In this document: piece after piece, positions 5,484 to 36,702 of the stretch | How positions within the stretch are numbered: position 1 is the first letter of the stretch | How the letters are laid out: each line of letters opens with the position of its first letter | UHGV virus genome: UHGV-0324630 | DNA from: a virus | Length of the DNA stretch: 37,666 bases | Strand: one strand, 5' to 3' | Position numbers and translations under genes: made by a program | The notes under the pieces: model-generated | What the model saw: the letters and a program-made list of their open reading frames with translations, nothing else | What the model was told of the DNA's origin: nothing | Database searches by the model: none

Positions 5484-5605
5484 GAAACCAGAACATGCAC
5501 ACACAAAAAAACCGCTTGCCATGCCGCAATCGGTCAGGTTACATTTCCGCTGCACCTCATAAAACGGGTGCCGGGATTCTCAACCCGATACAGAGCAAAG
5601 CGCAT

Positions 5606-5626
5606 AACCGCGCTAGCGGTTTTTTT
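5606..5626 (+). terminator. Intrinsic terminator-like hairpin (AACCGC-gcta-GCGGTT followed by a T-run)
   Basis: GC-rich 6-bp stem, 4-nt loop, then about 7 T; 123 nt downstream of the stop at 5483. Confidence 0.5.
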
Positions 5627-5805
5627 GTGCGTACTGTATTGCCACGTCTTTTTCGCGTCAGAATTATGGCGGGGCGTACGGGGCCGACTTCGGTCGGGCC
5701 GGATTCTTTGCTCTCCGGTGTTGAGAACCCTGTACGTCTCGCCACCCCGAGATTCTCAACTCTGGATGGTGAGTTATTTCTATCACCGAGCAAAGAGGCC
5801 ACACC

Positions 5806-6036
5806 ATGGCAGACCGCAAACAGCACCGCGCTATCGCGGAGCGTCGTCACATCCAGACTGAAATCAACCGCAGACTTTCCCGCGCATCACGCGTCGCGCA
5901 AATCATGCACATCAATATGCTGCATGAGCGCAGCCACGCACTATCAAACATTTATTCCGCCTCTGTTTTCAGCTATCTGGCGGATGATCTGCACGAGTTT
6001 CAACAGCTCATCCAGCAGCAAAACAAACTCCATTAA
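5806..6036 (+). CDS. Hypothetical small basic protein upstream of the replication genes
   Basis: 76-aa ORF with AAGAGG RBS 7 nt upstream. Confidence 0.55.
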   Translation: MADRKQHRAIAERRHIQTEINRRLSRASRVAQIMHINMLHERSHALSNIYSASVFSYLADDLHEFQQLIQQQNKLH

Positions 6037-6108
6037 TTCCTGTTCCGGGCCTTTCCTGCACCTTGCGGCGGGAGGCCTTCGCACATCTGTAACAAGAGGA
6101 TTGCCGCA

Positions 6109-6474
6109 ATGATTCTCGCCAACGACTTTCTTGAATACCTGCTCAACACAGAACGTGATCTTGCCGCTCGCGTGCGTGATCGTTATGACATGTACCTGAA
6201 ATCCCTGCCTGTACCGCAGCTCGCTGACGGAAAGATTGTTATTGATGGTCGCTACATGATTGACAGCCACGAGGGAAATTACAGGCTTTACCGCATTGAA
6301 GGTGGCACCCCGACCGTTATTGGCATTTACCAGCGCCCATCCTCTGCAATCGTCGATGTGATTGCCGACAGCATCCGCATCACACATCGCCATGCCGACA
6401 CAGAAGACACCGTGCTGGAAATTCAGCGGCTGGCTACAGCCTGCCGCGACACCCTGAATGGCATGACGAAGTAA
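6109..6474 (+). CDS. Hypothetical protein preceding gpA
   Basis: 121-aa ORF with AGAGGA RBS. Confidence 0.6.
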   Translation: MILANDFLEYLLNTERDLAARVRDRYDMYLKSLPVPQLADGKIVIDGRYMIDSHEGNYRLYRIEGGTPTVIGIYQRPSSAIVDVIADSIRITHRHADTEDTVLEIQRLATACRDTLNGMTK

Positions 6475-6480
6475 ATCACT

Positions 6481-9303
6481 ATGACGGCAGAGTACATCAG
6501 GGACTGGCAACAACCGCGCCACGCAGTGGGGCGTGAAGGAACGGGGATCCCCGCTCCTGAATCTGCGCTTTCCTCCTGGCTGGATGCCTACCGGGCAGAG
6601 AACGAGCGCCGCCAGGAAATGGCTGATGCGGCGTTCTCCGCCACACCGCTGGGCAACCTGATTAATAAAAGCCTGGACGCACAGGAAAAACAGGACAAAG
6701 CCATCACACTGGCAGGAGACGCCAGAAAACAGGCACGCGGCGCGGTGGATGAAGCCATGGCCTCGCTGCGCCTGCTGCCGTCCTATTTGCGCGATCCACT
6801 TATTCGTCACCTCTCCTTCCTGCGCAAAAAACAGGAAGCCGATCGCCGGAAAGGCAAAAAGAGCTGGCAGGCAGAACGCTATGCACGCGGAACCCTGCGC
6901 AAGATATTCGATCGCATAAACCGCACCGACAGCCGCTGGCTGACACCGGGTTATCGCTCCCTTGCCGGACGCGAACGCCTGGACGATTTGCTTTACCTGC
7001 CGCAGCTCAACAAGCACCAGATACAGACGCTGGCTACCATGACGGCGGCGATGTTCAGCAGCACCTTCGAAAAACTCTGCGATGGTTTTGGCGCGACCGA
7101 TGGCGAGCTGACCATGGATGTAACCCTGAAGGCGTATCAGATGCTGGCCCGCATGGCGTTACACCTGCACGCCATGCCTCCACATTATGACGCACTGACA
7201 ACAGACAAAGACCGGAGGAACGAACCGGACACGGAGCTGCTGCCAGGCGCAATCCTTCGCCTGACCTGTGCGGAATGGTGGAAACGCAAACTGTGGCTGT
7301 TACGTTGTGAGTGGCGGGAAGAACAACTTCGCGCCGCCTGTCTGGTTTCCAGAAAAACATCGCCCTATCTGAGCCAGGACGCGTTAAGCGAGTTTCGCGC
7401 ACAGCGCGAGAAAACACGCGATTTCCTGAAAAGTTTCATGCTGGAAAACGAAGACGGGTTCACGATTGATCTCGAGACAGTGTATTACGCGGGAGTAAGT
7501 AACCCGGTTCACCGTAAGGCAGAAATGATGGCCACCATGAAGGGGCTGGAACTTCTGGCCGAAGCCCGTGGCGACAAAGCGGTGTTTCTGACTGTCACCT
7601 GCCCGTCAAAATACCACGCCACAACAGAGAACGGTCATCCGAATCCCAAATGGAACGGGGCCACCATGCGCGACTCCAGCGATTACCTGGTTAACACGTT
7701 TTTTGCGGCGGTCCGCAAGAAACTGAACCGCGACGGCCTGCGCTGGTATGGCATCCGCACGGTGGAGCCTCACCATGACGGCACCGTGCACTGGCATATG
7801 ATGGTCTTTGCTCATCCGGAAGAAATCGACACCATTGTGTCCCACACCCGTGATATTGCCATTCAGGAAGATCGTCACGAGCTGGGTGATGATATTACCC
7901 CACGCTTTAAGGCGGAGTACGTCGACGGCTCAAAAGGCACACCGACCAGCTACATCGCCACCTACATCGGGAAAAACCTGGACAGCCGTGCCGTGGATGG
8001 CATCGACCCGAAAACGGGCAAGCCACGCGTTGACCACGAAACCGGAAAATCAATGGCCGAGAGCGTGGAACGCGCCATCGGCTGGGCGCGCCTTCACCGG
8101 GTCCGCCAGTTCCAGTTTTTTGGTATCCCCTCCCGTCAGGTGTGGCGTGAGCTGCGTCGCCTTGCCAGCCAGATGGCACGCAACCCGGAAGGCCCACAAC
8201 GGCTGAAGGATGACGCAATGGATGCGGTTCTTGCTGCCGCTGATGCCGGATGTTTTGCCACCTACATAGAGAAACAGGGCGGCGTACTTGTTCCACGCAA
8301 GGACTACCTGGTTCGCACCGCCTACGACCTCGCAGATGAACTGAATGATTACGGCGAACAGAGCGTACAGATTTACGGGATCTGGTCACCACTCATCGGG
8401 GAATCCTCTCGTGTGTGCACGCATCCGGATAACTGGAAGCTGGTAAGACGTAAACCGGAAACGGAAGACAGCGCCCGCGAAAATGGTTTTGACCTTCAGG
8501 GCGGCCCTGCCGCCCCTTGGACTCGTGGCAATAACTGTCCCCGTGTACAGGAAACGGACAACAACGGGACAGAACAGCCGGAAGAACGGCCAGCACCGTG
8601 GCCGCAGCTCCCTGACGGCGTTGAAGTGAACGAATGGATGCGCTCACTGAAACGGCACGAACGCCGGGCGCTGATGCGTTCGCTTCGTGACAAACAGGCA
8701 AAAAACAGCAGTGATGAAATGCAGAGCTGGACACAGAGCCGCAAACAGCAGCGGCCTTTGCCTGATAACCACGAATTACTCGCTAAAGAATGGCGGGAGT
8801 CTGCTGAATCTCTCGGCCTGCATATCGGTGAACAACAGATGCAGCACCTGTTACGGGGCGGCAGTCTGTACGTTGACGGCAGCATCATTGCACCGCAGGG
8901 ATTTGAAATTATACGCAAACCGGATACCCGCCCGGACAGCCGAATCACGCAGCTCTGGCAGCGCCTGAGCCGTAATCACGGCGTAAGCAGCACGGAGATC
9001 CGCCATAACCCGGTCGCCAGCTATCTGGCACAGCTGGGGGCATCAGCCCCTGAAGCCGCCGCACGCCTGGCATCCACACTTCAGCAGGACCAGAACACCA
9101 TGAAAACACCCGTTACCGTGCTTTCTGACATGCTGCGCGCCATCCGCGACGCAGAGCACGCACAGAGAATCAGTGAAACCACTGAACGCGCCCGCCGCAA
9201 AGCAGACCTGCTGCGGGGTGGCCTGACCAGTGGAAACAATAAACAGACAGAAACGGGACTCACGAATCCCGTAAATGAGCAAAAAACGCGCAGCGATATA
9301 TGA
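6481..9303 (+). CDS. A: Rolling-circle replication initiation endonuclease (P2 gpA family), with a long C-terminal extension
   Basis: 940-aa ORF; HUH-type motif GTVHWHMMVFAHP and paired-tyrosine motif TSYIATYIGKN typical of P2 A-type Rep proteins. Longer than P2 gpA (about 760 aa by my memory). Confidence 0.9.
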   Translation: MTAEYIRDWQQPRHAVGREGTGIPAPESALSSWLDAYRAENERRQEMADAAFSATPLGNLINKSLDAQEKQDKAITLAGDARKQARGAVDEAMASLRLLPSYLRDPLIRHLSFLRKKQEADRRKGKKSWQAERYARGTLRKIFDRINRTDSRWLTPGYRSLAGRERLDDLLYLPQLNKHQIQTLATMTAAMFSSTFEKLCDGFGATDGELTMDVTLKAYQMLARMALHLHAMPPHYDALTTDKDRRNEPDTELLPGAILRLTCAEWWKRKLWLLRCEWREEQLRAACLVSRKTSPYLSQDALSEFRAQREKTRDFLKSFMLENEDGFTIDLETVYYAGVSNPVHRKAEMMATMKGLELLAEARGDKAVFLTVTCPSKYHATTENGHPNPKWNGATMRDSSDYLVNTFFAAVRKKLNRDGLRWYGIRTVEPHHDGTVHWHMMVFAHPEEIDTIVSHTRDIAIQEDRHELGDDITPRFKAEYVDGSKGTPTSYIATYIGKNLDSRAVDGIDPKTGKPRVDHETGKSMAESVERAIGWARLHRVRQFQFFGIPSRQVWRELRRLASQMARNPEGPQRLKDDAMDAVLAAADAGCFATYIEKQGGVLVPRKDYLVRTAYDLADELNDYGEQSVQIYGIWSPLIGESSRVCTHPDNWKLVRRKPETEDSARENGFDLQGGPAAPWTRGNNCPRVQETDNNGTEQPEERPAPWPQLPDGVEVNEWMRSLKRHERRALMRSLRDKQAKNSSDEMQSWTQSRKQQRPLPDNHELLAKEWRESAESLGLHIGEQQMQHLLRGGSLYVDGSIIAPQGFEIIRKPDTRPDSRITQLWQRLSRNHGVSSTEIRHNPVASYLAQLGASAPEAAARLASTLQQDQNTMKTPVTVLSDMLRAIRDAEHAQRISETTERARRKADLLRGGLTSGNNKQTETGLTNPVNEQKTRSDI

Positions 9304-9348
9304 AGCGCGCACAAAACAGGCAAAAACGGGATTTCAGAATCCCGTAAA
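9251..9348. repeat. Two copies of a ~25-bp dyad-containing repeat (AAACGGGA-N8-GAATCCCGTAAA); candidate parC-like centromere/operator
   Basis: Copy 1 at 9251..9275 (inside the gpA 3' end), copy 2 at 9324..9348 (parM upstream region); each holds an inverted repeat GGGAyT-N4-AATCCC; flanking A-rich context is also similar. Confidence 0.4.
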
Positions 9349-9379
9349 CGATTAATTAATCAACATAAGGAAAAGCGAC

Positions 9380-10339
9380 ATGAAAATTTGTATCGACGAC
9401 GGCTCCACCAACATCAAGCTGGCATGGACTGAGAACGGCGAACGCCGCAACGCCATCAGCCCGAACAGCTTCAAGTCGGAATGGTCTGCGCCGTTCGGTG
9501 GCACGCAGCCCGCGAACTACATGCTTGATGGCGTGCGCTATGGTTTTGATCCTGTCAGCGATCGCTTTGTCCAGACGACCGACACGCAATACCAATACAG
9601 CGATGTGAATGTCATTGCCATTCATCACGCGCTGGTCAAATCAGGCATCACGCCACAGGAGGTGGATGTGGTTGTCACCCTGCCACTGAGCGAGTATTTC
9701 GACACAAACGCACAGCCGGACATGGCCAACATCAACCGCAAAAAAGCGAACGTTATGCGCCCGGTGGAGTACCAGAACGGCAAAGCATTCACTATCCGTA
9801 ACGTACGGGTTATGCCTGAATCTATTCCGGCTGGCTTTAAAGCACTGGCTGACATGAGTCCGTTTGAATCCCTGCTGATTGTGGATTTAGGCGGAACCAC
9901 GCTGGATGTGGCAAAGGTTCAGGGACAACTGGCAGGTATCAGCCAGGTGTTTTGCGATCCACACGTAGGCGTTTCCCTGATGGCCGATGCAGTACTGTCG
10001 GTGATGGCCACTAACGGTATGCGTACCAGTCACCACATCGCCAATACCATTATCGAACATCGCCATGATGAAGCTTGGCTGCGCCAGCACATCCACAATG
10101 ACGCGCATTACGCCAGCCTGATGGCGGTTATTCGTGAAAAGGAAGAAACACTGAAACAACGCGTGATCCGCGCGCTGGCGGGTTTTTCGGGTTACGGGCG
10201 GGTGATGGTTGTCGGTGGCGGAGCGGAGATTGTGGCACCCGCTATCCGCGAAGCCTGCGGGGTTAATGCGACTTTCATCGCGGACGGGGTGCCACAGTTT
10301 GCTCTGGTTAATGGGCTGTACGCAATGGACAAGGAGTAA
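9380..10339 (+). CDS. parM: ParM/StbA-family actin-like ATPase (type II partition NTPase)
   Basis: 319-aa ORF; N-terminus MKICIDDGSTNIKLAW...ISPNSFKSEW...YQYSDVNVIAIHHAL and later PESIPAGF, IVDLGGTTLD, FSGY..VMVVGGGAE align closely with my memory of plasmid R1 ParM (MLVFIDDGSTNIKLQW...ISPNSFKREW...). Confidence 0.9.
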   Translation: MKICIDDGSTNIKLAWTENGERRNAISPNSFKSEWSAPFGGTQPANYMLDGVRYGFDPVSDRFVQTTDTQYQYSDVNVIAIHHALVKSGITPQEVDVVVTLPLSEYFDTNAQPDMANINRKKANVMRPVEYQNGKAFTIRNVRVMPESIPAGFKALADMSPFESLLIVDLGGTTLDVAKVQGQLAGISQVFCDPHVGVSLMADAVLSVMATNGMRTSHHIANTIIEHRHDEAWLRQHIHNDAHYASLMAVIREKEETLKQRVIRALAGFSGYGRVMVVGGGAEIVAPAIREACGVNATFIADGVPQFALVNGLYAMDKE

Positions 10340-10343
10340 ACCA

Positions 10344-10655
10344 ATGACGACACCAACCAGACGGATAAGTTTCTATCTGAAGCCCGCCGCCGTCAAGAAC
10401 GAAGGCGAAGCATGCGCCTGGCTGGACAGCCTTACACCAGAAGCCCGTAAAAACGGCCAACGCGTGGCTTTTCTGGCCGGGCTGGCGCTTCTGAAAATGA
10501 ATCCGGCAGAGGCTTACCGACTGGCAGCATGGGCTGACGATGAGGCGTTATCAGTGACACAAACCAGGACAGAACGCCCCCTGTCACAGCCAGTACCAAC
10601 CGCACAGATAACCAGTCAGATGGCCGGAAATATCAGGGCGTTATTTCCTGAATAA
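10344..10655 (+). CDS. parR: ParR-like centromere-binding adaptor (RHH family)
   Basis: 103-aa ORF from ATG 10344 (AAGGAG RBS); RISFYLKPAAVKNEGEACAWLDSLTPEARKNGQRVAFLAGLALLKMNP and C-terminal IRALFPE resemble R1 ParR (IAFKLNPDV...DSIPQGERSRLNRAALTAGLALYRQDP, LRSLFPKE) from memory. The longer track ORF from 10209 overlaps parM and is probably not the true start. Confidence 0.8.
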   Translation: MTTPTRRISFYLKPAAVKNEGEACAWLDSLTPEARKNGQRVAFLAGLALLKMNPAEAYRLAAWADDEALSVTQTRTERPLSQPVPTAQITSQMAGNIRALFPE

Positions 10656-10663
10656 CACAACGT

Positions 10664-10681
10664 CAGGGCGAGTTCGCCCTG
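10664..10681 (+). terminator. Stem-loop (CAGGGCG-agtt-CGCCCTG) just downstream of parR; possible terminator or stabiliser, no U-tract
   Basis: Perfect 7-bp GC-rich stem read directly from the sequence. Confidence 0.3.
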
Positions 10682-10718
10682 ATCTCCATCTCAGAACATA
10701 AACAAGAAGAGCGACTTA

Positions 10719-11102
10719 ATGAGCAAAATCAACTATCAGGCATTACGTGAACGTTATTCACCTGCACCAGTACCAAAATGCCCTATTTGCGGCGAAGAAA
10801 TGTCAATTCAGCGAATATCTGGAGCACAGGTTGTTTATGCCTGCTCCAGTTATGGTGATGATGGAGATTTCAAAGTTGGTCGAACTCTTGTCGACGAACA
10901 TTATGAAAAATCACGCGTAACAGTGTTGGATGTCGGGGCCCCTGAAGTATTGGCGCTACTTGATTGACTGGAAACCAAAGACAACCGAATCACTGAACTG
11001 GAAAAAATCGCCACTGACTATGCACTTAAATTCCAGAAAGCACAGGACGCATTAAAGTACGCCGCTTTGCTGCATAGCAGGACAGCGCAGCTAAAATACT
11101 AA
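10719..11102 (+). pseudogene. Zn-ribbon/coiled-coil small protein interrupted by an in-frame TGA at 10965..10967 (probable TGG to TGA nonsense change); 82-aa product if terminated
   Basis: ORF 10719..10967 (CPICGEEM...YACSS) stops at TGA, but the same frame continues protein-like for 44 more codons (LETKDNRITELEKIATDYALKFQKAQDALKYAALLHSRTAQLKY) to TAA at 11100-11102. Reading TGA as Trp gives a seamless ...LALLDWLETKDN... junction. Confidence 0.4.
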
Positions 11103-11192
11103 CTTAAAGCGGAAGATTAATACATGGTGAGTCGGGGTAATTTGTTTTTATCCCGACAAATAAACAAAAAAGTGGACTATCTCTGTAGTATC

Positions 11193-11723
11193 TTATTCAG
11201 CATCGTCTCGTGCAGTCTGTGCATACGTCACAACAACGCCCAATGCATTAGTTTTCTTTTCAACATAGATAATATTGTCATATTCATAGTTACCATACGG
11301 ATAGCAAATAAGAATATTTTTATGCAGTTCGGGATCATCAACAAACGCTCCGGAACAGCTTCTTGAACTACCAGATGTATACTCATACGGTGCAACATAT
11401 GATGATGTTACTCCTGGTAAAAAATAAGTCACCATCATAAGAGGGATAATCAGGAATATCCCTGTAAGAATGCAAGAGCCAGCATAAACCTTCAGGTATT
11501 CCGACAGTCCTTTCCAGCCACTTTGCTTCACTACCCCCCTCTTCACCAGAAACAAGGAGAAGAAAAAGGACATACCCATACTACACAAGATGTAATAATT
11601 GGATATACGCGAATTAAGATATGTAATCCTGTAGATATCTGCCCTCCACCAGTAAAAGAGGAAAATAATCCCTAGCACTGAAACAGTCATGCAAATCAAA
11701 TAAGGATATGAATCTTTCTTCAT
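11193..11723 (-). CDS. Integral membrane protein (about 4 TM helices plus a C-terminal soluble region), unknown function; AT-rich cargo gene at the position of the P2 tin/old accessory locus
   Basis: 176-aa ORF; hydrophobic segments LICMTVSVLGIIFLFYWW, YILCSMGMSFFFSLFLV, VYAGSCILTGIFLIIPLMMVTYFL; markedly AT-rich relative to the phage backbone. Confidence 0.65.
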   Translation of the reverse strand: MKKDSYPYLICMTVSVLGIIFLFYWWRADIYRITYLNSRISNYYILCSMGMSFFFSLFLVKRGVVKQSGWKGLSEYLKVYAGSCILTGIFLIIPLMMVTYFLPGVTSSYVAPYEYTSGSSRSCSGAFVDDPELHKNILICYPYGNYEYDNIIYVEKKTNALGVVVTYAQTARDDAE

Positions 11724-11795
11724 GTCTTGCGCTCATTAAAATTTCCCTGCTACGAACAAATTTACCATCCGTTTTTTGCGCAGAAAACAGCACGA

Positions 11796-11828
11796 TGCAC
11801 ACTGCACGATAGTGCACAAATTTGCACA
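11796..11828. repeat. Four helically phased TGCAC(A) repeats in the non-coding region between the cargo gene and portal gene (probable cos/packaging region)
   Basis: TGCAC at 11796, 11803, 11813, 11823, with a fifth at 11895; flanked by TTTTYTGCGC motifs at about 11773 and 11913. Confidence 0.3.
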
Positions 11829-12253
11829 ATTTTTTTGAACGACTTTTTACCCTTCCGCCCCGCATGGCGGCTGGATCCGTCAAGGATCCGTGCGTGCACA
11901 AAAAAAAGCGTTTTTTCTGCGCGCAGGTGACGGGGGAACAGCCCGCGTTTCAGGGGGTAAATAGCATTCCCTGAGCGATGTCGCAGCGACACAACAGAAT
12001 GGCTGTATTTCTCACGCTGAGCGTGAAAAAGACGTGAGGGCTTTTGATTTGATGGGGTAACAGATAAGGCCGCCAAAATCGCACTGAGGCGGCAGGAACA
12101 TGCAGTCAACGCGGTGGGATTGCGTAAGAGTCTGACCGTCGATGATGGCAATAAGCTGGAAGGCGTCGTGAAATTATCTGATTGATACAGGAGCTGGAGA
12201 GTCGGGGCATAAATTTTTTATGCCCCGGCGAAGCAGCAGACAAGCGAAGCGCG

Positions 12254-13300
12254 TCAGGCTGTGGGCTGAGTGTCTAACAGTGCGTAAGGGTTAAAGCGGA
12301 TCACCTCTTCGCCCAGCCAGTCATTGATGTGCTTCATGGCCTCCATGACGGGCATCAGCTCATTAATTGCGTAAACCCGCGCGGCCTTCTCCACATCACC
12401 AAACGCACTTTTTTCGCCCGGCATCGCCCCCATCAGTTGCGGTGGAACGCGGTGCGCAGCCAGCACATCATCACGGGATGCCGCCTTAACATTCATGAAC
12501 TCATCCTTTGCGGTGATCTGCTGGAACGGCAAAATTTGCACCCCTTCTTTGCCCCCGTTGGGCGCATGAATGAGCACGTTTTTAAACGCACCACCACCAC
12601 GTGCCCCCTGTAGCGTTTCTTTCAGTGAGTCCATGCTTTCGCGGTTTACCTGCGCTGCACCGATGTAGATGATGCACCCGGCGTGGGAGCCGTTGTCGTA
12701 GTACAGTTTTCTGAACATGTCCGCCGAATGAGACAGGCTGGCCGAGAGTAATGCACCAAGATATTCCGGCATGCCGTAGATTTCCTGGTTAATATCCGGA
12801 TTCATCAGGTGGCACACTTTGCCAGGGCGAAACTGAAACGCGTCCTTACCATCCTGCACATACCACCATGATTCAAGATCGCTTCCGCGTCGCATGTATT
12901 TCGCCAGGGCGTGCCGTAATTTAAGCGGTTCGCCGAGCATATTGCTTCGAAGCTCAAGGAATGCGTTACCGAACACAAACCAGTCCAGCGCCAGCGCCGA
13001 GAAATCCTGCCGGGAAAGCAGCGGGTGCGGGATGTAGCAACCGAGTAATACATTGCGCTTAAAGTAAAGCGCAGATTGATGCCAGGACGTTTGCCGGGCA
13101 GCTCTTGCCAGACCGTACCAGTCCACCGGGGTTTCATACCACCGCCCGTTATCAGCACAGTACATATTGTCCAGCAGGTCATGCCCGGTCAGGCGGTAAG
13201 GACCATCAAATGTGAATGCACTGAGCGATGATTCTTTCCTGAGCGCATCAGCGAGATCAATGCGTGAACTCATGCGCACTTTTTTATTTTTTCTGCTCAT
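12254..13300 (-). CDS. Q: Portal protein (P2 gpQ-like, PBSX-type portal family)
   Basis: 348-aa ORF directly downstream of and overlapping (TGATG) the large terminase gene on the minus strand; size and position match P2 Q. Confidence 0.88.
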   Translation of the reverse strand: MSRKNKKVRMSSRIDLADALRKESSLSAFTFDGPYRLTGHDLLDNMYCADNGRWYETPVDWYGLARAARQTSWHQSALYFKRNVLLGCYIPHPLLSRQDFSALALDWFVFGNAFLELRSNMLGEPLKLRHALAKYMRRGSDLESWWYVQDGKDAFQFRPGKVCHLMNPDINQEIYGMPEYLGALLSASLSHSADMFRKLYYDNGSHAGCIIYIGAAQVNRESMDSLKETLQGARGGGAFKNVLIHAPNGGKEGVQILPFQQITAKDEFMNVKAASRDDVLAAHRVPPQLMGAMPGEKSAFGDVEKAARVYAINELMPVMEAMKHINDWLGEEVIRFNPYALLDTQPTA

Positions 13301-34680: not shown

Positions 34681-35820
34681 GTGGGAAACAATAAAGTGAA
34701 ATTAGGAAGAAATGATAAGTGCTGGTGTAATTCAGGACTTAAGTATAAAAAGTGCCATCTTGGTCGAGACCGTGAAACTCCGGTATCCAAAGCCGAGGCA
34801 CTGAAATTTTCAAAGTCTCTCTCGCAGAGAAAGGCATGTTATGCGCCAGCATCCATGCACGAAGATTGTGATAAACGCATCGTTCAGGCGCATACGATAT
34901 CTAAGAGCAGTAGCCTTAAGGCGATCGCCGACTCCAGCAATCACGTCATGGGGGTGATAATGAACTTAGCAAGCCTGATGAGAAACAACGGAAAATGGCT
35001 TCCCGAGAAGATCGGTATCAATCAGGCATCCACTTTTACAGGATTTTGTGCAGTTCATGACAGAATCTTGTTTTCATGCCTAGAGAACGAAAAATTTACA
35101 GGCACGGACGAGCAGTGCTTTGCCTTAATGTTTCGTTCATTGTCTAAAGAAATTTACGCCAAAGAAGGGGGAGTGCTATCTTCCGATTTTGCTAAAAATG
35201 CCGATAAAGGAAAGCTACAAGTTGAACAGTATTATATTCAGAAATTAATCGACCAGCACCAAAGTGGCTTAAATGCAGCAATAATTGAATTAAATAATCT
35301 TAAAACTAGCCTCGACCGCATCCTACTTAGCAGGCAATTTTCAGAAATTGAAAGTGTTATCTTCACTTTTGCAGAGCCTTTACCAATTGTAGTTTCGTCA
35401 ATTCTTTCACCGGAGAGGGATTTCGATGGGACCAAAATTCAGGATTTGAGCGATCTTACAGTGTCGGCGGAACAAGTATGTTTCAATGCTTTTTCCTGCG
35501 GAGGTAAGGGATATGTAGTGTTCAGTTGGCTGAGAACTTCAACAATTATCAGACGTTTTATACGGACACTAATTAAGATCCCGGCTAACAGGATGTTCAA
35601 TACCCTTCTGTATTTTTTCTTCACAAAGGCCGAAAATACATATTCATCCCCTGAGTGGTGGGACAGGCTCAGTGATAAACAGCGAGAGAATATCGGCAAC
35701 ATGATTATGTCAGGGGTTGAATTTTTTGGCAGACCTACATCACAGGTTGATCATTCCGTTGATTATAACGCCGCTGCACTTGAAGAGATAACATGCAGCA
35801 ACAACGAAATTTGCAGCTGA
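34681..35820 (+). CDS. Uncharacterised protein with N-terminal SEC-C-like zinc-binding motif (C-W-C-x8-C-H); AT-rich cargo gene inserted between gpD and ogr
   Basis: 379-aa ORF (GTG start, start uncertain; alternative GTG at 34696); N-terminal KCWCNSGLKYKKCH; rest unrecognised; strongly AT-rich with about 400 bp and about 290 bp non-coding flanks. Confidence 0.65.
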   Translation: MGNNKVKLGRNDKCWCNSGLKYKKCHLGRDRETPVSKAEALKFSKSLSQRKACYAPASMHEDCDKRIVQAHTISKSSSLKAIADSSNHVMGVIMNLASLMRNNGKWLPEKIGINQASTFTGFCAVHDRILFSCLENEKFTGTDEQCFALMFRSLSKEIYAKEGGVLSSDFAKNADKGKLQVEQYYIQKLIDQHQSGLNAAIIELNNLKTSLDRILLSRQFSEIESVIFTFAEPLPIVVSSILSPERDFDGTKIQDLSDLTVSAEQVCFNAFSCGGKGYVVFSWLRTSTIIRRFIRTLIKIPANRMFNTLLYFFFTKAENTYSSPEWWDRLSDKQRENIGNMIMSGVEFFGRPTSQVDHSVDYNAAALEEITCSNNEICS

Positions 35821-36109: not shown

Positions 36110-36370
36110 ATGTTCCGTTGTCCGCTTTGTGGCGCATCTGCCCGAATCCGCACCAGTCGTCCGGAAAACGATTCAAACACTGTGCGGCAAAAGTATTACC
36201 AGTGTAACAACCTGGAATGCGGCGTATGCTTCTCAACACTGGAAGCTTTCCATAAATTCACATCAAAACACGCCTCCGGCGTTCACTCTTCGGAAGGTAT
36301 CCCGTGGCATGAGCTGCCAGCTTCACACAGGGGAAACAATCAGATGAGTTTGCCTTTACCTCAGAATTAA
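36110..36370 (+). CDS. ogr: Ogr/Delta-family zinc-finger late-gene transcription activator
   Basis: MFRCPLCGASARIRTSR...QKYYQCNNLECGVCFSTLE matches the P2 Ogr pattern (MFHCPLCQHAAHARTSR...RYHQCQNVNCSATF, from memory): C-x2-C ... C-x4-C zinc finger. Confidence 0.85.
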   Translation: MFRCPLCGASARIRTSRPENDSNTVRQKYYQCNNLECGVCFSTLEAFHKFTSKHASGVHSSEGIPWHELPASHRGNNQMSLPLPQN

Positions 36371-36561: not shown

Positions 36562-36702
36562 ATGTCGCAAAAATCGCTTACGGCCATCACGTTCTGCGTG
36601 ACGGTAATCCTCATCATCTGGATGCTACACGGTTCGCTGTGTGAAATACGGATGAGCTTCTGGGGAGCGGAGTTTGCGGCGTTCTTACAGTGTAAGCAGT
36701 AA
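36562..36702 (+). CDS. Hok/Gef-family type I toxin (small membrane toxin)
   Basis: 46-aa ORF with AAAGGAG RBS: MSQKSLTAITFCVTVILIIWMLHGSLCEIRMSFWGAEFAAFLQCKQ; N-terminal TM helix then the SLCEIR motif characteristic of Hok/SrnB/PndA; not in the ORF track (below 60 aa). Confidence 0.8.
   Translation: MSQKSLTAITFCVTVILIIWMLHGSLCEIRMSFWGAEFAAFLQCKQ

Follow-up and report, generated by a model that had tools for sequence, protein, structure and literature searches.

The stretch of viral DNA analysed here (UHGV virus genome UHGV-0324630, 37,666 nucleotides, in the following called the window) is essentially one complete P2-type prophage, reading from int to ogr. Directly behind its replication gene A it carries two genes, parM and parR, whose products are related to the actin-like protein ParM and the DNA-binding adaptor ParR of the type II partition system ParMRC of plasmid R1. 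An earlier note on this DNA had described the pair as a plasmid-type partition cassette in an integrated P2-like prophage and had considered three roles, namely maintenance of the element as an episome, partition incompatibility against incoming plasmids, and use of the actin-like filament during lytic replication or virion assembly. Here we report that the cassette encodes a full-length ParM under purifying selection, that it recurs behind the replication gene in five prophage lineages and that it is preceded by a conserved pair of palindromes, which is likely its centromere. On balance, we lean towards a working ParMRC that would act on extrachromosomal, replicating phage circles.

The ParM/ParR cassette of P88-like prophages

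The first gene of the pair, parM (9380..10339, + strand), encodes a predicted actin-fold ATPase and segregation filament former of 319 amino acids. Pfam matches cover its full length, with StbA_N at residues 1-157 (3.8e-82) and the ParM C-terminal domain at residues 159-316 (1.3e-68), and PHROG 691, annotated 'partition protein', is matched at 8e-91. A phmmer search aligns residues 2-316 of the protein with structures of R1 ParM (PDB 1mwk and others; E=2.3e-92). Its ATPase motifs are the same as in R1 ParM: DDGSTNIK (phosphate-1), MPESIPAG (with the equivalent of E148), DLGGTTLD (phosphate-2, with the equivalent of D170) and VGGGAE (adenosine). The catalytic and nucleotide-binding roles of these motif residues are known for R1 ParM. 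By these matches, the open reading frame (ORF) is a full-length ParM with intact predicted catalytic motifs. The gene is under purifying selection. All 81 related loci encode a ParM of 319 amino acids, 141 of the 195 variable sites fall on third codon positions, and the mean ratio of nonsynonymous to synonymous substitution rates (dN/dS) is 0.055.

The second gene, parR (10344..10655, + strand), starts 4 nucleotides past the parM stop, has its own Shine-Dalgarno sequence (GGAG) and encodes a putative centromere-binding adaptor of the ParR/StbB type with 103 amino acids. The protein matches Pfam PF10784 (Plasmid_stab_B, 'Plasmid stability protein', StbB/ParR) at 2.2e-24 and PHROG 2515 at 5e-58. 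A single-sequence search of the PDB with ParR returned no match; a profile built from seven sequences including ParR matches the ParR/StbB structure of plasmid pB171 (2JD3) at 4e-15. The profile searches against the ParM/StbA and ParR families, which the earlier note had suggested as a check, thus gave significant matches for both proteins, and the cassette is of type II with both ORFs at the coordinates that the note had assigned to them. Its wording 'clear homologues' is right for ParM already in pairwise alignment; homology of ParR to plasmid ParRs is seen at the profile level only.

ParR is predicted to have a ribbon-helix-helix domain at the N-terminus (residues ~1-65) and the motif NIRALFPE at the C-terminus, joined by a variable linker (66-92). 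Among the 81 loci there are 51 protein variants of ParR. Residues 1-18 are almost invariant, the remaining N-terminal domain occurs as two main alleles and residues 66-92 are hypervariable. The protein ends in a conserved (K/G)NI(R/Q)x(L/F)FP(E/K/D), of which the core N-I-x-x-(L/F)-F-P is invariant in P88-like ParRs. The ratio of nonsynonymous to synonymous polymorphism (pN/pS) amounts to 0.16-0.19 in the N-terminal domain, ~0.75 in the linker and 0.09-0.19 in the C-terminal motif. All four ParRs that appear truncated are contig ends. A C-terminal N-x3-LFP is also present in the ParR of a plasmid of incompatibility group L/M (IncL/M), and StbB of phage D6 has the variant N-x4-LP. In R1, the C-terminal peptide of ParR binds ParM (PDB 4A62). 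The variation of the phage ParRs is of the pattern expected of an adaptor in which a DNA-binding domain and a ParM-binding peptide are joined by a flexible tether. The constant length of ParM, its low dN/dS and this structured constraint on ParR together indicate that the function of parMR has been maintained. Just past parR codon 18 (after 10398), nucleotide identity among P88-like variants drops from ~98% to ~65%, a step with the signature of a recombination breakpoint at the edge of the variable accessory region.

The window matches Escherichia coli strain E5 at 100%. There, the prophage lies between yecA and the leuZ-cysT-glyW tRNA genes, next to leuZ (tRNA-Leu). Integrase, repressor and the cox-side early genes come first; gene A, parM and parR follow, and behind a short variable region lie portal/terminase, head, lysis, tail, D and ogr. 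This is the gene set and order of P2-type phages (int, C, cox, A ... Q, P, O, N, M ... tail genes, D, ogr). Gene A (6481..9303, + strand) encodes a replication endonuclease of the P2 gpA type with 940 amino acids (Pfam Phage_GPA, 1.9e-131). The cassette itself is 100% identical to that of strain E5 and 97.7% identical to that of the temperate phage P88 (Peduoviridae, Xuanwuvirus). The element is a P88-like (Xuanwuvirus) member of the P2 family. That it is P2-like and integrated had been proposed correctly, and the gene order in the window and in E5 also bears out the proposed location of the cassette directly after gene A and before cos/portal, at the place of the accessory genes of P2.

Nor is the cassette peculiar to this one prophage. 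It is present in 1308 of 5426 complete E. coli genomes (about a quarter), and 1454 of its 1456 places are chromosomal. A gene A of the same type (coverage of at least 80%) is found in 1319 genomes, so that ~99% of these have the cassette and it is practically universal in the P88 lineage. Near-identical cassettes occur in phages P88, P884B11, PhiR44_2, Chuche, 520873, 503458, vB_EcoM-569R5/705R2 and Citrobacter phage phiSM, and in 203 IMG/VR stretches. They have been annotated before, in RefSeq as 'plasmid segregation protein ParM' and 'plasmid partitioning/stability family protein', and also in GenBank and PHROGs. A tblastn search of 50,697 phage records with ParM gave matches in P88-like phages and, outside these, in the P1-like plasmid prophage D6 alone. 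P2, 186 and other classical members have no R1-type ParM among these records, which agrees with the claim that canonical P2-like phages lack a partition system.

Beyond E. coli, P2-like prophages of four other genera show the order gpA-parM-parR-cargo-portal, with ParM identities of 62% in Hafnia, 63% in Plesiomonas, 58% in Serratia and 54% in Enterobacter. Counting E. coli, parMR follows gpA in five prophage lineages. A neighbour-joining tree of 109 ParMs, computed without bootstrap and with the genomic context of most leaves unknown, places the five prophage ParMs in one clade, apart from the ParMs of R1, IncL/M plasmids, D6, an integrated conjugative element and an integrated plasmid. Those ParM homologues with an identity of 50% or less that were checked belong to the integrated conjugative element (Dickeya) and to the integrated plasmid (Mangrovibacter). 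The Dickeya ParM/ParR pair, with 49% ParM identity, lies on the chromosome (L093, 6001-7373) with TraG_N, TraU and an integrase nearby. At least 5000 enterobacterial plasmid records encode a ParM that is ~52% identical to the phage protein. In only six plasmid records does the identity of ParM reach 95%; one of the six is an entire phage, and the other five are large replicons or pieces of chromosome that were probably mis-assigned. A tblastn search of plasmids with ParR (E of 1e-3 or lower) returned no ordinary plasmid ParR; six of the seven matched records hold a P88-type ParM of at least 95% identity, and the seventh (H38) was not inspected. Judged from these comparisons, the cassette is a long-standing, vertically inherited core part of one branch of the P2 family and not a recent capture.

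Paired palindromes upstream of parM and transcription of the cassette

Upstream of parM, a direct repeat of 38 nucleotides is present in two copies, which together form the putative centromere parC. Repeat 1 (9241..9278) lies inside the 3' end of gene A and contains the palindrome ACGGGACTCACGAATCCCGT (9253-9272); repeat 2 (9314..9351) contains the palindrome ACGGGATTTCAGAATCCCGT (9326-9345), 35 bp before the parM start. The palindromes have the 20-bp consensus ACGGGAyT-N4-AATCCCGT and are 73 bp apart. These are the only two sites of the motif in the window, with 0.08 matches expected by chance, and the left edge that the earlier note had given to the cassette, 9251, coincides with the first of them. 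Adjacent to parM, the exact motif is found in 115 of 118 IMG/VR loci.

Fixed-offset comparison of the upstream regions was misled by insertions and deletions, and a MAFFT alignment was used instead. At the homologous sites in Hafnia and Plesiomonas, a GGG-N10-CCC core with A-rich flanks is present. The sites are spaced by 73 bp in both E. coli and Hafnia and by 72 bp in Plesiomonas, though the DNA between them diverges. The same three lineages keep the ParR N-terminus TRR(I/V)SFYL. They also share a box, ATTAATCAA (9355..9363, + strand), between repeat 2 and the ribosome-binding site of parM, in surroundings that differ. Serratia and Enterobacter, with more diverged ParR N-termini, have different paired repeats at the same position, with the long inverted repeat GGGAAC.A.ATAGAAAAAT. 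The parC of an IncL/M plasmid consists of two repeat clusters, which are also 73 bp apart. Ribbon-helix-helix proteins commonly bind such sites as dimers of dimers. An iteron array was found neither by Tandem Repeats Finder in the whole window nor by repeat searches of 8900-10800 and 10600-12300; an iteron-type centromere was rejected, as only the two palindromes stand out in these searches. The paired palindromes are likely the centromere, with ParR as their putative ligand.

We prefer this assignment to one in which the palindromes are tandem intrinsic terminators against leftward (antisense) transcription into gene A, ParM and ParR being functional and the true ParR site lying elsewhere or having escaped detection. 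The terminator reading draws on the structure of the E. coli sites. On the minus strand, both form an 8-bp stem with a 4-nucleotide loop, followed by T-rich tails, and fold at -10.2 and -10.4 kcal/mol (z -2.0 and -2.6), so that the 38-nucleotide repeat unit amounts to a hairpin plus T-tail. The exact 20-mer ACGGGATT-N4-AATCCCGT also occurs in three unrelated viral contigs (L095 at 7312, L130 at 5388 and L200 at 1313), where it counts as a terminator; for at least L095 and L200, it clearly lies within an intrinsic terminator, with a GC-extended stem or an A-rich leader followed by a T-run. The centromere assignment is further burdened by the number of candidate ParR sites, only two as against the ten 11-bp iterons of R1 parC. 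Conservation speaks for the centromere. The Hafnia sites and Plesiomonas site 1 retain the GGG..CCC core and the spacing of 72-73 bp and lose the stability of the hairpin, folding no better than shuffled sequences (z -0.07 to -0.5), and Serratia and Enterobacter have other paired repeats at the same place. Moreover, there is no minus-strand gene within 1.8 kb to the right of the sites, neither the vicinity of the cassette nor the window offers another repeat array, and the position upstream of parM is the canonical one for parC. We hold the terminator reading to be unlikely.

Concerning transcription, a consensus scan found no sigma-70-like site in 9000-12300. Upstream of parM, a relaxed scan gave no site of at least 8/12 for E. 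coli and Serratia, and what it gave for the other lineages was weak and implausibly placed; an own promoter for parMR was rejected after these two scans. No P2 late-promoter boxes (TGT-N12-ACA) were seen by eye in 9200-9380, and no + strand terminator was found between gene A and parM. With no recognisable promoter and no terminator after gene A, parMR is therefore most likely co-transcribed with the early replication operon, probably by read-through from gpA. The parC of an IncL/M plasmid has a 10/12 sigma-70 promoter between its repeat clusters; a promoter inside parC, of the kind that ParR autoregulates, was not seen in the phage cassette by consensus scan. The phage lineage appears to have swapped an autoregulated promoter for its early operon. 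Behind parR, 8 bp past its stop, a GC-rich inverted repeat, TCAGGGCGA-GT-TCGCCCTGA (10663..10682), has a terminator-like score on the minus strand only; through a presumed role on the + strand, it may mark the end of the transcription unit.

A proposed action on extrachromosomal phage DNA and its alternatives

We propose that the cassette works as follows. ParR dimers would bind the two 20-bp palindromes through their ribbon-helix-helix N-terminal domains, the spacing of 73 bp corresponding to ~7 helical turns. The C-terminal peptide of ParR (...NIRALFPE) would capture the ends of ParM filaments, and ATP-driven polymerisation of ParM between two ParR-bound copies would push the DNA molecules apart, as in plasmid R1. 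Expression would be confined to the derepressed early operon, that is to the time after infection or induction when the free circle is copied by gpA, and would be excluded in the repressed, integrated state. P2 replication proceeds by a gpA-initiated rolling circle to monomeric double-stranded circles, which are the substrate of packaging; the same is assumed for P88. The target would be these phage circles, kept separated or positioned, and in both daughter cells, until integration or packaging. Two benefits may be envisaged. Both daughters of an infected or induced cell that still divides could keep phage DNA, an inheritance like that provided by SrpMRC, or replicating genomes could be positioned for efficient replication, in the manner of AlpAC. 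The identity of the proteins, the intact catalytic motifs, purifying selection, deep synteny, the phage-specific ParM clade and the conserved paired sites carry this proposal; that ParR binds the palindromes, when the genes are expressed and what the phage gains from them is inferred. The Hok/Gef-family toxin gene of the prophage, a homologue of the other stability locus of R1, also speaks for the proposal. Of the three roles that had been considered at the outset, action in the replicative extrachromosomal phase fits best.

Several points weigh against the proposal. P2-type lytic development is short, and what would be gained by segregation into daughter cells is hard to see. With 1454 of 1456 cassette copies integrated, an episomal stage is not directly evidenced, and a query for the attP junction found contiguous attP in none of 442 genomes with one integrase type. 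A circular record of 34,461 bp (NZ_CP148288.1, 'plasmid pZ1323PEC0009-2', L002; PLSDB/RefSeq) is a complete P88-like genome closed across attP. It begins precisely at the att core, the point where the copies in chromosomes break (adjoining pdxB in several of the listed records), and it may be an excised or induced prophage that the assembler split off, and not a plasmid that is maintained; being cut exactly at att, the record was rejected as proof of maintenance as a plasmid. The case against an own promoter is built on simple consensus scans, with which a weak or factor-dependent promoter would be compatible. An AlphaFold2 model of the ParR monomer (23-sequence alignment) reached a mean predicted local distance difference test score (pLDDT) of 56 and left the N-terminal strand unformed, a low score that is expected when an obligate dimer is folded as a monomer; a helix at residues 86-100 appears in this low-confidence model. 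Finally, no functional study of parMR of P88 or phiSM was found in the searchable literature, and the phiSM paper mentions the gene only in a list, as 'fitness' cargo (PMC6456863). The earlier note had held that universal presence in close relatives together with a demonstrated non-partition role would speak against partition. The first half of this describes the cassette; a demonstrated role of any kind, non-partition included, was not found.

A more far-reaching explanation makes the P88-like element a facultative plasmid-prophage, a low-copy, gpA-replicated episome that lasts for many generations, with ParMRC and Hok/Sok as its maintenance kit and integration as one of two lysogenic states. 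The circular record would suit such an element, and D6, the sole other phage with an R1-type ParM, is a true plasmid prophage. The window also encodes a toxin of the Hok/Gef family (46 amino acids, 36562-36702, + strand; Pfam HOK_GEF, 3.7e-7) next to ogr (36110-36370), and phage P88 (gp52) and the circular P88-like genome have this gene as well. A Sok RNA was not detected by Rfam at the gathering threshold. By homology, the prophage carries relatives of both R1 stability loci, parMRC and hok/sok. Against a plasmid life stand the almost exclusively chromosomal location in complete E. coli genomes, the lack of contiguous attP in all 442 genomes with the same integrase, and the circular record beginning at the att core. 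Furthermore, all members keep the integrase, parMR has no detectable promoter while the early operon is repressed, and the copy in the window lies between yecA and leuZ and not outside the chromosome, as would be typical of a phage-plasmid. We judge a facultative plasmid-prophage to be distinctly improbable. The episome considered by the earlier note has one 34.5-kb circular record in its favour, and a stable episome is at most rare. A wider formulation, that P88-like phages pass through or persist in a partitioned, plasmid-like state with gpA-replicated circles segregated by ParMRC and policed by Hok, is also given little credence by us.

The cassette might instead be a weapon of incompatibility or exclusion: in a lysogen, ParR and/or the chromosomal centromere would interfere with how ParMRC plasmids that enter the cell, or superinfecting P88-like phages, are partitioned. 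Incompatibility caused by partition systems is known to occur, and potential targets are abundant, given the at least 5000 plasmid records with a ~52% identical ParM. Against this, the phage ParR has no similarity to ordinary plasmid ParRs that tblastn could detect, the palindromes are a motif specific to the phage cassette and do not resemble the 10-bp iterons in the parC of an IncL/M plasmid, and no promoter for expression in a lysogen was detectable. Conservation over a deep clade suits a core phage function better than a gene in an arms race. A PADLOC scan of ParM, ParR and the two downstream ORFs was empty, and a reading as a defence system was rejected on this ground. Activity against plasmids, the second of the roles first considered, is thereby disfavoured, and we regard it as very improbable. 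That the cassette is an inert passenger, a plasmid cassette captured by recombination at the edge of the variable accessory region (where the breakpoint past codon 18 of parR lies) and unused by the phage, is effectively refuted by selection and synteny: dN/dS is 0.055 with ORFs intact in all loci examined, the arrangement is shared over five genera at 54-63% ParM identity with the phage ParMs in one clade, and ~99% of genomes with the same gene A type have the cassette.

What is already known comprises the family assignment, the public annotation and the existence of partition modules on integrated elements. We have not found described the phage-specific ParM clade over several genera of Enterobacterales, the palindrome pair with 73-bp spacing as a candidate centromere, and the apparent promoter swap. 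An integrating virus carried by about a quarter of the sequenced E. coli strains has, among its conserved core genes, a close relative of the textbook plasmid-segregation machine. If our proposal is true, a tailed phage would for the first time be shown to use an R1-type ParMRC, and the principle that integrated elements need partition while excised would extend from the SXT/R391 integrative and conjugative elements (ICEs) and prophage CGP3 to the P2 family. It could also explain how loss or dilution of the phage is avoided in the extrachromosomal phase. Were a partitioned plasmid-like state to exist, facultative phage-plasmids would make up a large branch of the P2 family, whose members are supposed to be strict integrators, and actin-driven DNA movement would be tied to the outcome of lysogenisation or induction. 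The question is tractable, as P88 and phiSM are inducible and form plaques on hosts compatible with E. coli K-12, and R1 ParM reagents and mutants exist. Given the strong purifying selection, a dispensable cassette would be informative as well.

Other parts of the prophage deserve mention. The slot just past parR holds a HicA/HicB toxin-antitoxin pair in Serratia (L091, 8450-9084) and a KAP-family NTPase in Enterobacter (L092, 7411-8757), and parMR borders a defence/cargo hotspot in all lineages. In the window, the variable region between parR and cos/portal contains a truncated ead/Ea22-like ORF (10719-10967, + strand; Pfam 1.7e-17), for which PGAP notes an internal stop, and a predicted membrane protein of 176 amino acids (11193-11723, - strand; phrog_1416, unknown function), which is annotated as frameshifted in strain E5. 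The cargo between parR and cos/portal differs among other P88-like phages. In the early region, Rfam matches to isrK (63 bits) and C4 antisense RNA (78.5 bits) at 5552-5626 and 5662-5749 (+ strand) sit at the start of, or within, an Ash-family ORF (5495..6112); the region looks like an antisense immunity or anti-repressor module of the P1/P7 c4 type in a P2-like phage. Between late gene D and ogr, an ORF of 379 amino acids (34681-35820, + strand) has an N-terminal SEC-C metal-binding motif (Pfam 2e-8; RefSeq 'YecA family protein'). It is without a counterpart at the same position in phage P88 and is apparently prophage cargo.

Comparison with known partition systems

One close relative is the prototype of type II partition systems, ParMRC (parA/stb) of plasmids R1 and R100. 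The phage cassette shares with it the full-length alignment of ParM, the identical ATPase motifs, a ParR of family PF10784 and the order cis-site-parM-parR, with the cis sites upstream of parM in two blocks. In contrast to R1, the phage cassette resides in an integrating P2-type phage and not on a plasmid, its candidate parC consists of two 20-bp palindromes instead of ten 11-bp iterons, and this candidate centromere is without a detectable promoter. Furthermore, the phage ParR is too diverged for a pairwise match, and the phage ParM belongs to a separate, phage-specific clade. ParR (StbB, 2JD3) of pB171 is a ribbon-helix-helix adaptor that binds the centromere, and the profile match of 4e-15 extends over its whole N-terminal domain. 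The ParR of the window differs in giving no significant pairwise match and in being shorter (103 amino acids). The middle 'I-S-S-V-L-P' segment found in ParRs of plasmids, of D6 and of other phage lineages is absent from the window ParR.

Among phages, StbA/StbB of D6 is a further close system, with an R1-type ParM of 48% identity and the GenBank note 'similar to phage P88 StbA protein'. A partition system is self-explanatory in D6, which is kept as a plasmid, and its ParM falls with the plasmid ParMs, outside the P2-like clade. The closest precedents for the proposed action are SrpMRC of SXT/R391 ICEs and AlpAC of the Corynebacterium glutamicum prophage CGP3. AlpAC is induced early and is needed for efficient replication of circular phage DNA (Donovan et al. 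2015, PMC4446434). AlpAC/alpS likewise combines an actin-like filament with a DNA adaptor in an integrated prophage, and its adaptor binds upstream of its own operon (PMC4446434). Differences are that AlpC is a very distant actin-like protein and not an R1-type ParM, that the adaptor gene comes first, and that host and phage type are others.

In SXT/R391 ICEs, SrpMRC keeps the element stable once it has been excised (Carraro et al. 2015, PMC4489591). The kinship of SrpM to R1 ParM is remote, and a ParR domain cannot be recognised in SrpR; moreover, SrpMRC belongs to a conjugative element and not to a virus, and its function has been demonstrated, whereas that of the phage cassette is predicted. 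Both are type II modules on an element that is normally integrated, and SrpMRC acts on the excised, rolling-circle form (PMC4489591). SrpMRC is also expressed with the excision/replication regulon, as we propose for parMR, and a toxin-antitoxin system stands alongside, hipAB in SXT/R391 and hok in the prophage (PMC4489591 for SrpMRC).

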